From Pachysolen tannophilus NRRL Y-2460 (lineage: Eukaryota), in NCBI GenBank assembly GCA_001661245.1, contig KV454018.1:631569-695568 (forward strand): 64,000 nt of DNA, in the 5' to 3' direction. The notes under the pieces were generated by a model, which saw only the letters and a program-made list of their open reading frames with translations, was not told where the DNA came from and made no database searches. Below, piece by piece: positions 41,158-42,453 of the stretch (its first letter is position 1; each line of letters opens with the position of its first letter). The translations under genes were made by a program, and so were the position numbers.

Positions 41158-42453
41158 ATGTATGCTTCTTATAGCTGAATCTTCTCTCATTTAGAGGAAG
41201 ATTTATTAAAAGATTGATAATGATTACATTCGTTGGTTAAGTATTAACTTGTTGGTACATAATATTACTTTGAGCATGACCGGTGCCATTTATTCATTTC
41301 TCGCTTTTAGGTGAATGAATTGAATATCTAAGGCTGAGATGATACGGTTGAACTTGAACTAGTTAATACTAGCGCGAAGAACATGCAATTTTTATCTTTT
41401 TCAAATATAAATGTTTTATTTTAAAAGAATTTCAAAGTGAATTACTAACTTTTAACTAATGTTTGCTTTTTTGCTTTTTTTTTTGGGTAATATAGGTCAA
41501 CTAGCGTTTTAACTAAAAATGTTCAAACTTTACACTTGAACAACCAAGAATCCAATGAATCACCTATTCTGAAGGCAACTTCTGCTGTTTTCAACTGGGA
41601 TGATTTCAAATTTGCTCCAATTAGAGAATCAACAGTTTCTAGAGCAATGTCTAAACGTTATTTTGAAGATTTAGACAAATTTGCCGAATCTGATATTGTT
41701 ATTATTGGAGCAGGTTCTTCTGGGTTATCTGCAGCCTTTGTCTTGGCAAAGGCAAGACCAGATTTGAAAATTGCCCTTGTTGAAGCTTTTGTAGCTCCAG
41801 GTGGTGGTGCTTGGCTTGGTGGTCAATTATTTTCAGCAATGGTTATGAGAAAGCCTGCTCATAAATTTTTAAATGATCTTGGAATTGAATACGATGATGA
41901 AGGTGATTATGTTGTTGTTAAACACGCTGCATTATTCTCTTCAACTTTATTATCCAAAGTCTTAACTTTCCCAAACGTTAAGCTATTTAATGCCGTTGCT
42001 GTTGAAGACTTGATCACTAGAAAAGACCATACTACGGGTCAACTAAGAGTCTCTGGTGTAGTTACCAATTGGGGTGCACTATCATTATCGGGTGCTCACG
42101 ATACACAATCATGTATGGACCCAAACACTATTAATGCCAATGTCGTTCTCTCTTCTTGTGGCCATGATGGTCCTCACGGAGCCTTCTCTGCAAAGAGACT
42201 CGAATCATTTGGTATTAAAAAATTGGGCGGTATGCAAGGTCTAGATATGAATGCTGCAGAGGACCAAATTGTTAAAAGTACTAGAGAAATTGTTCCTGGT
42301 CTATTTTTCTGCGGTATGGAGCTCGCTGAGTTGGACGGTTGTAACCGTATGGGCCCAACGTTTGCTGCAATGGCAATCAGTGGTGTCAAGGCAGCAGAAG
42401 AAATCTTGAAGGTTTACGACGACCGTAAGAAGATGAACTCAAAGTCTGCTTGA
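41158..42453 (+). CDS. THI4: Thiazole synthase (Cys-type); exons 41158-41159, 41496-42453
   Basis: AT|G joined across intron 41160-41495 (GTATGC...TACTAAC 41443...TAG) gives [16 protein letters not shown]...[13 protein letters not shown]...GAGSSGL...GGGAWLGGQ...QSCMDP...RMGPTF. Confidence 0.93.
41274..41386 (+). promoter_or_regulatory. TPP riboswitch aptamer inside THI4 intron
   Basis: P1 GCATG/CATGC, P2 ACCG/CGGT, P3 GCC/GGC with long extension, CTGAGA pyrimidine sensor (41334-41339), P4 CTT/AAG, P5 CTAG-TTAATA-CTAG, GCG junction. Confidence 0.93.

Follow-up and report, generated by a model that had tools for sequence, protein, structure and literature searches.

The THI4 gene of the yeast Pachysolen tannophilus NRRL Y-2460 appears to be cut after the second base of its start codon by a 336-nucleotide (nt) intron that carries a thiamine pyrophosphate (TPP) riboswitch, and TPP-controlled splicing of this intron would set the output of Thi4. 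The gene lies in the window, a 64,000-nt stretch of contig KV454018.1 (assembly GCA_001661245.1, positions 631,569 to 695,568 of the forward strand), whose own numbering is used throughout; all features described are on the plus strand. We put the probability of this reading at roughly 0.6. When TPP is low, the intron would be removed, the AU of the first exon would join G41496, and AUG-UCA... would be read to give all 319 residues of Thi4. At high TPP the aptamer, with its ligand bound, would cause the intron to be retained, in which case the first AUG would give MYASYS followed by a stop, together with many short open reading frames (ORFs) and no Thi4; such intron-retained THI4 RNA would be a likely substrate of nonsense-mediated decay (NMD). 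The anatomy of the locus, comprising the splice signals, the reading frame, the aptamer and the identity of Thi4, is established.

Gene structure of THI4

The ATG at 41158–41160 stands in the context ACAATG, with an A at position −3 that is good for yeast, and its final G also opens the GTATGC donor at 41160–41165. From this donor the predicted intron (41160–41495, 28% G+C) runs through a perfect TACTAAC branch box (41443–41449) and a U-rich tract with the 3' splice site (41452–41495) to TAG at 41493–41495; the AG at 41494–41495 is the first past the branch box, with none between, and the TAG lies 46 nt 3' of the box. Joining the last two bases of exon 1 (41158–41159) to G41496 restores ATG-TCA-ACT... 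in frame, giving 319 codons and a stop with the N-terminus MSTSVLTK, where exon 2 (41496–42453) contributes the initiator's G as well as 318 codons of Thi4 and the stop. The Thi4 frame is closed upstream by TAA at 41488–41490, two codons 5' of the acceptor, the stop-to-stop ORF spanning 41491–42453. With the intron left in, translation from the ATG at 41158 yields MYASYS* (41158–41178), and the unspliced RNA offers eight further intronic ATGs, each opening an ORF of 2–17 codons; with three more out-of-frame ATGs in exon 2 ahead of the in-frame Met51, a total of 12 AUGs precede 41647 in unspliced RNA. A first-pass annotation, made by a model from the letters and their translated ORFs, had described the overlap of ATG and donor, the in-frame AT + G rebuild through the TAG ending at 41495 and the dead-end reading MYASYS*, all of which are borne out by the sequence and its translation. 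Its next in-frame ATG (MSKRY) is likewise found downstream as Met51, at 41647–41649 rather than at 41648.

Between 40900 and 41500 the donor pattern GT[AG]NG[TC] occurs twice, at 41039 (GTGGGT) and at 41160, and the sole ATG between 40900 and 41158 is at 41046, where it reads MIKL*; no other upstream exon is therefore able to supply an initiator. An upstream exon bringing an ATG through the GTGGGT donor at 41039 was considered and is impossible, there being zero ATGs in 40900–41038. Judged on the DNA sequence, the AT|G gene model is the only way to a canonical initiator for this Thi4. The stored THI4 product of the window begins NWDDFKF and has no Met, from which it follows that the first exon, with a coding part two bases long, was missed. 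Four public DNA assemblies, which derive from one sample in one study and may be the source of the window itself, contain no splice joints and are identical to the window here save for one extra T behind 41474, an intronic homopolymer length difference in the U tract that leaves the frame unaffected.

The leader of THI4 may contain an intron of its own, an 87-nt candidate at 41039–41125 with AAG|GTGGGT, a TACTAAC at 41109 and TAG at 41123–41125. Its excision would remove the one other upstream ATG (41046, MIKL*), and its GTGGGT donor is atypical when set against the GTAAGT and GTATGC donors elsewhere in the window.

The protein encoded by the joined exons is Thi4: the Pfam domain PF01946 is matched over residues 48–289 (E-value 1.3e-105, 352 bits against a cut-off of 26.2), and among proteins of known structure the matches are N. 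crassa CyPBP37 (PDB 3jsk, 1.7e-120) and Saccharomyces cerevisiae Thi4 (PDB 3fpz, 4.5e-113). The SCMDPN motif, invariant in the alignment of fungal Thi4 proteins, is present with its catalytic Cys, presumably the sulfur donor. Since residue 11 of the 3fpz chain aligns with residue 8 of exon 2, the N-termini of the present protein and the yeast one agree to within about three residues, and residues 33–50 are nearly invariant in all nine aligned fungal proteins (this Thi4 and eight others). The closest named relative, Thi4 of Ascoidea rubescens, shares 75% identity across 99% of the query, and its gene model starts MSAVLTE, which resembles M|STSVLTK by eye.

A TPP aptamer within the intron

A permissive Infernal scan of 41000–41600 yielded a match to the Rfam TPP family (RF00059) at 41269–41398, 130 nt long, with a score of 50.6 bits and an E-value of 5.5e-9, covering model positions 1–105 of 105 without truncation; the other four matches of that scan (E ≥ 0.79) are attributable to chance. 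The two-arm architecture of the class (P1; P2–P3; P4–P5), with the CUGAGA and the P4/P5 UAAUAC..GCG motifs, is present in the Infernal alignment, and the minimum free energy (MFE) fold of the isolated stretch shows the same helices, P1 being formed by GCAUG (41274–41278) with CAUGC (41378–41382). The conserved motifs are intact, namely CUGAGA and, in P4/P5, ...UAAUACUAGCG (P4/P5 segment ...ACUAGUUAAUACUAGCG), and we take these to be the ligand-contact regions. The aptamer is situated inside a predicted spliceosomal intron of a thiamine gene, for which donor, TACTAAC and acceptor are all present, and Thi4 cannot be read from the RNA as long as that intron stays in place.

A scan of the whole window at Rfam gathering thresholds returned zero matches, because the gathering score for RF00059 is 54.3 and the element reaches 50.6 bits. 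The shortfall coincides with a missing P3a and a 37-nt insert in P3, and is a matter of the scoring cut-off, not a structural feature. One of the three riboswitches of N. crassa likewise misses the scoring threshold according to the available text of Donovan et al. (PMC5997356). We accept the element as a true TPP aptamer that narrowly misses the cut-off, with ligand binding predicted from its sequence, and the earlier proposal of a TPP aptamer in this intron is upheld to that extent. Among relatives, RF00059 was sought (Rfam, E ≤ 0.01) at 14 of the best 80 of 119 confirmed metagenome loci, namely the nine most yeast-like (L001–L008 and L055) and five with longer upstream flanks, and 0 TPP matches were obtained.

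Predicted folds of the intron

Folding of 41130–41520 gives an MFE of −75.9 kcal/mol with the canonical aptamer included. Directly outside P1 a helix, here called P0, is predicted between 41251–41273, contiguous with P1, and 41432–41449, the latter strand contributing 18 paired bases that include the UACUAAC box with the branch A at 41448. Within P0, GUUGGUA (41251–41257) pairs with the whole branch box (41443–41449) at pair probabilities of 0.78–0.85. When the flanks were shuffled 150 times with the aptamer, the splice sites and the branch box held fixed, the probability of an unpaired branch box was 0.69 ± 0.16, compared with 0.125 in the natural sequence, a value as low as which was reached by 0 of the 150 shuffles; a full 7-nt complement of UACUAAC arises by chance in 107 of 5000 shuffled flanks.

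An upstream segment, X (41216–41260), is predicted from duplex energies relative to controls to act as an anti-aptamer strand. Its core, GUAUUAACU (41241–41249), is a perfect 9-bp complement of AGUUAAUAC in the P5 loop (41361–41369). The duplex of X with the 3' (P4/P5) half of the aptamer has an energy of −20.7 kcal/mol, a strength attained in 15 of 1000 shuffles and in 3 of 1000 natural AT-rich 46-mers, and that with the AUG/5' splice-site region (41141–41166) has −14.3 kcal/mol, reached by 56 and 18 per 1000, respectively; both pairings at once were found in 0 of 1000 sequences of either control. For a transcript ending at 41400, in which the aptamer is complete and the branch site absent, the X–P4/P5 fold is preferred (ensemble energy −63.4 for the anti-aptamer fold vs −58.3 with the aptamer on), whereas at full length the values are −80.0 and −82.3; the folds are near-isoenergetic, and which of them ranks first changes with the length of the transcript. 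In the anti-aptamer fold the branch box has a probability of 0.76–0.79 of being unpaired, compared with 0.04–0.10 when the aptamer is on, and for the AUG/5' splice site the corresponding ranges are 0.39–0.51 and 0.27–0.33. The length-dependent order of the folds, together with the difference in branch-box exposure, suggests a kinetic switch.

A mechanism can be proposed on this modelled basis, in which the P4/P5 strand would have two partners, one within the aptamer and the other in the upstream antisense segment X. In nascent RNA that lacks ligand, the anti-aptamer fold would win, the branch site would stay open and splicing would proceed. TPP would lock the aptamer, P1 would continue into the 18-bp P0 with GUUGGUA on UACUAAC, and the branch site would thereby be hidden from BBP and U2; the released X may in addition pair with the AUG/5' splice-site region. 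Taken alone, this competition of X, aptamer and P0 for the branch site is a tentative model, to which we would give somewhat less than even odds. The direction of the predicted switch, with TPP repressing, is the expected one. The first-pass annotation had TPP toggling a single initiation site between Thi4 and a micro-ORF; the single AUG with two readings is indeed in the sequence, but the switch would act on splicing, and the choice made at the AUG would be a consequence.

Other pairings were examined and set aside. A duplex of the 5' splice site with the 3' strand of aptamer P1/P4 (11 bp, −12.4 kcal/mol) is a chance match: 685 of 1000 shuffles do as well, and so do 435 of 1000 random 31-mers and 17 of 26 other GUAUG sites. 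Regulation through this duplex would, moreover, have the wrong sign. A pairing of GUUGGUA with aptamer UACUAGCG, which would then be a "decoy branch site" (−7.6 kcal/mol; full-length MFE −68.3) was superseded by the stronger X helix. In the intron of C. parapsilosis DUR31, as drawn in the S4 figure of Donovan et al., a GGUUGG:CUAAC(UU) complementarity of 5–7 bp can be picked out by eye, and it was given no weight.

Comparison with known riboswitch introns

Riboswitch introns in THI4 have been described by Donovan et al. (2018) in Pichiaceae, in part of the Yarrowia clade as well as in Ascoidea rubescens (PMC5997356, here and below as far as its available portions extend). The first-pass annotation was thus correct in naming Neurospora among the known fungal cases, but its list stopped there, with budding-yeast THI4 riboswitch introns already in print. 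Pachysolen tannophilus (translation table 26) is itself entered in the S1 table of that study, where its THI4 riboswitch is given as 130 nt long; as this is the same length as the Infernal match, the present element has probably been catalogued already, and the table entry and our element may be the same locus. Like the yeast introns of Donovan et al., the present one is 5'-proximal, measures about 340 nt, houses the aptamer and has a consensus-type donor, TACTAAC and only one acceptor. The gene, THI4, is shared as well, and the protein cannot be encoded from unspliced RNA. It departs from their description in having the donor inside the ATG and in the predicted extension of P1 that pairs with the branch site. 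In C. parapsilosis, thiamin raises the retention of the DUR31 riboswitch intron, also when it is expressed from a constitutive promoter in S. cerevisiae, and the mechanism by which yeast riboswitches affect splicing is stated by the same authors to be unknown (PMC5997356).

The likeness to the NMT1 and THI4 genes of N. crassa is that a thiamine gene would be repressed by TPP through splicing, with short ORFs replacing the main one, and that, as in NMT1, nucleotides of P4/P5 have an alternative upstream partner, which here is predicted. The difference is that in N. crassa the intron is in the 5' untranslated region and has two donors flanking separate upstream ORFs (PMC5997356, PMC5882874, PMC7404189), whereas here one canonical donor was found, and the same AUG serves both the dead-end ORF and Thi4. 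The N. crassa riboswitches are reportedly the subject of Cheah et al. (2007). For NMT1, repression of the branch site upon TPP binding is stated in a review (PMC7404189, in its accessible part). Algal thiamine riboswitches, as cited in PMC5997356, have a predicted pairing at the branch point when TPP is bound; the locus studied here would share with them the occlusion of the branch point in the liganded state and the premature stops left behind, and it differs from them in lineage and in gene structure.

In the classification of Mukherjee et al. (2018; PMC5882874, consulted in its available portions), Type III comprises internal introns of 200–400 nt with an in-frame stop before the aptamer and requires two donors, and Type IV comprises riboswitches lying just upstream of a "single-exon" THI4, as in Komagataella phaffii, with 7 nt between the end of the riboswitch and the annotated coding sequence, which has a single exon (PMC5882874, supplement 2). 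The present intron is like Type III in its in-frame stop ahead of the aptamer and unlike it in that no second GT[AG]NG[TC] donor was found here. If the 2-nt coding exon were overlooked in annotation, the locus would pass for Type IV, which raises the possibility that some Type IV cases are missed micro-exons. The Thi4 model of Komagataella kurtzmanii (P0107) starts MRGIKAEIKR-APT and overhangs the M-APPT of its relatives by eight residues, which looks like another missed micro-exon or translated intron.

An intron at or within the start codon is nothing out of the ordinary in a yeast. Of 2421 introns in Yarrowia lipolytica, 42 have a donor that directly follows one of the letters of the ATG (A, T or G), and these start-codon introns are reported, in the accessible part of the source, to be efficiently spliced and tied to high expression, without ligand sensing (PMC13309789), by which they differ from the intron proposed here. 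A riboswitch intron splitting an initiator was not found in the literature searched, in which bioRxiv supplements and picture-only figures were not visible, and the phrase "start codon" has 0 occurrences in the main text, as available, of either Donovan et al. 2018 (PMC5997356) or Mukherjee et al. 2018 (PMC5882874). Going by the gene structure, the split initiator would be an undescribed but unsurprising detail, by which one AUG is made to serve the dead-end ORF as well as Thi4. The riboswitch kind and the gene have already been published, the clade very likely so; the new part is the predicted expression platform. An X/P0 relay is not known to have been described for any yeast riboswitch.

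Weighing of the evidence

Several points tell against TPP-controlled splicing of a split start codon or against the fold proposed for it. The aptamer is 3.7 bits below the Rfam gathering score. A BLASTP comparison of the first 50 residues with A. rubescens aligns residues 33–50 only, and conservation of the extreme N-terminus is accordingly a likeness without statistical support. As to the fold, pairing of the 5' splice site is not unusual in the ensemble (39 of 150 flank shuffles), the energy of the duplex between the 5' flank and the branch region is unremarkable on its own (reached by 243 of 2000 shuffles), and forbidding P1 alone leaves the branch box closed (unpaired probability 0.24 vs 0.23). 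The aptamer with P0 is, moreover, already the MFE fold at equilibrium in the absence of ligand; given this and the ineffectiveness of the ban on P1, the switch would need to be kinetic or co-transcriptional. The structural tests were picked after the fold had been viewed, and about seven pairings were tried, several of which were at the level of chance. Finally, splicing from 41159 to 41496, its dependence on thiamine and NMD are inferred by analogy with C. parapsilosis DUR31. On balance, the interpretation offered by the first-pass annotation is partly supported; its gene model is sound, and so is the analogy it draws.

The regulated event might be the choice of an alternative 5' splice site, as in Neurospora NMT1/THI4 (Type I/III), and not intron retention. 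TPP would then bring into use a weak second donor located after the stop of the micro-ORF and before the aptamer, GUUGGU at 41232 or 41251 and GUACAU at 41255 being the candidates, and the micro-ORF would stay in the mRNA. GUUGG is indeed present at two places here, 41232 and 41251; in C. parapsilosis DUR31 a second donor that departs from the consensus, GTTGGA, lies upstream of the riboswitch (PMC5997356); and X, complementary to P4/P5, spans the candidate donors much as P4/P5 of NMT1 pairs beside the proximal donor (PMC5882874). The interval 41166–41268, however, holds zero GT[AG]NG[TC] matches and only the weak GUUGGU and GUACAU sites, with an in-frame stop present at 41176–41178, and the second donor of C. 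parapsilosis is used both with and without thiamin and is not used at all in S. cerevisiae (PMC5997356). We therefore regard this alternative as unlikely, and the outcome for Thi4 would in any case be the same, namely no start codon.

Two further alternatives dispense with regulated splicing or with the split ATG. If splicing were constitutive, the aptamer would no longer be regulatory and THI4 would be controlled by its promoter, as in S. cerevisiae. The score below the gathering threshold and the equilibrium fold that is unchanged when P1 is forbidden are compatible with this, as is the repeated loss of riboswitches from yeast thiamine genes (PMC5997356). Against it stand the aptamer motifs and P1, P2, P4 and P5, which are all intact at an E-value of 5.5e-9, and flanks that complement the aptamer and the branch site more than shuffled ones do, and we judge constitutive splicing to be improbable. 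Thi4 might instead start not at the split ATG but at Met51 (41647), or from a transcript beginning inside the intron. That the Pfam Thi4 domain begins at residue 48, that archaeal homologues align from residues 32–45 and that residues 1–32 are not significantly conserved would all suit a start at Met51. Yet the frame is open right up to the acceptor, such a start would delete the near-invariant residues 33–50 seen in 9 of 9 aligned fungal proteins, and in unspliced RNA the ribosome would meet the 12 AUGs that come before 41647; this possibility is in our view very remote. Intron retention at a split start codon is the reading that we prefer.

Other features of the window

The gene upstream of THI4, at 37061–40498, encodes an alpha-mannosidase whose best named relatives are from Kuraishia, Candida boidinii and Komagataella (56–61% identity). 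All six of its CTG codons are read as Ala in the stored product, and the record was therefore annotated with the CUG-Ala nuclear code of the Pachysolen type. THI4 has a single CTG, at 41569–41571, corresponding to exon 2 residue 25, which is Ala if CUG is Ala. The downstream neighbour (42877–43248) is a small RRM protein (Pfam RRM_1, E-value 9.8e-17) whose frame is open upstream of the first Met.

A SurE-family gene in the same window (21059–21157) has a first exon of 12 nt, or four codons, giving MHVL|LTNDDG across the junction; its 87-nt intron (21071–21157) has the form GTAAGT...TACTAAC...AAG, and the Pfam SurE match begins at the first residue of exon 2. By its predicted structure, this short-first-exon gene may be counted in favour of the THI4 gene model. 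TACTAAC occurs seven times on the plus strand of the whole window and 0 times on the minus strand. The sites tied to introns are those of THI4, of the SurE-family gene and of the candidate leader intron (41109), and at 5644, 18676, 22114 and 46783 a quick join test restored no obvious frame. A run of N marking an assembly gap starts at about 22270, after a poly-T/C-rich stretch downstream of 22176.

Implications

The gene model of THI4 is corrected by these results, the stored product regaining its Met through a two-base coding exon. A compact 336-nt intron that makes or destroys a start codon depending on a ligand would also be a handy portable switch for yeast engineering, along the lines of the RFP assay to which the DUR31 intron has been put (PMC5997356, available text). 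For the question left by Donovan et al., of how a yeast TPP riboswitch blocks splicing with one evident donor, the competition of X, aptamer and P0 provides a concrete and mutable hypothesis. In its most extended form, our proposal is that one AUG has two fates, being completed either by exon 2 or by the intron's own G, through the X/P0 relay, and that the Type IV THI4 genes of Komagataella and its relatives may hide the same 2-nt exon; as a whole we hold this to be possible but doubtful. The Type IV fungal riboswitches, which have been classed without a splicing mechanism, are nonetheless worth re-examination for micro-exons.

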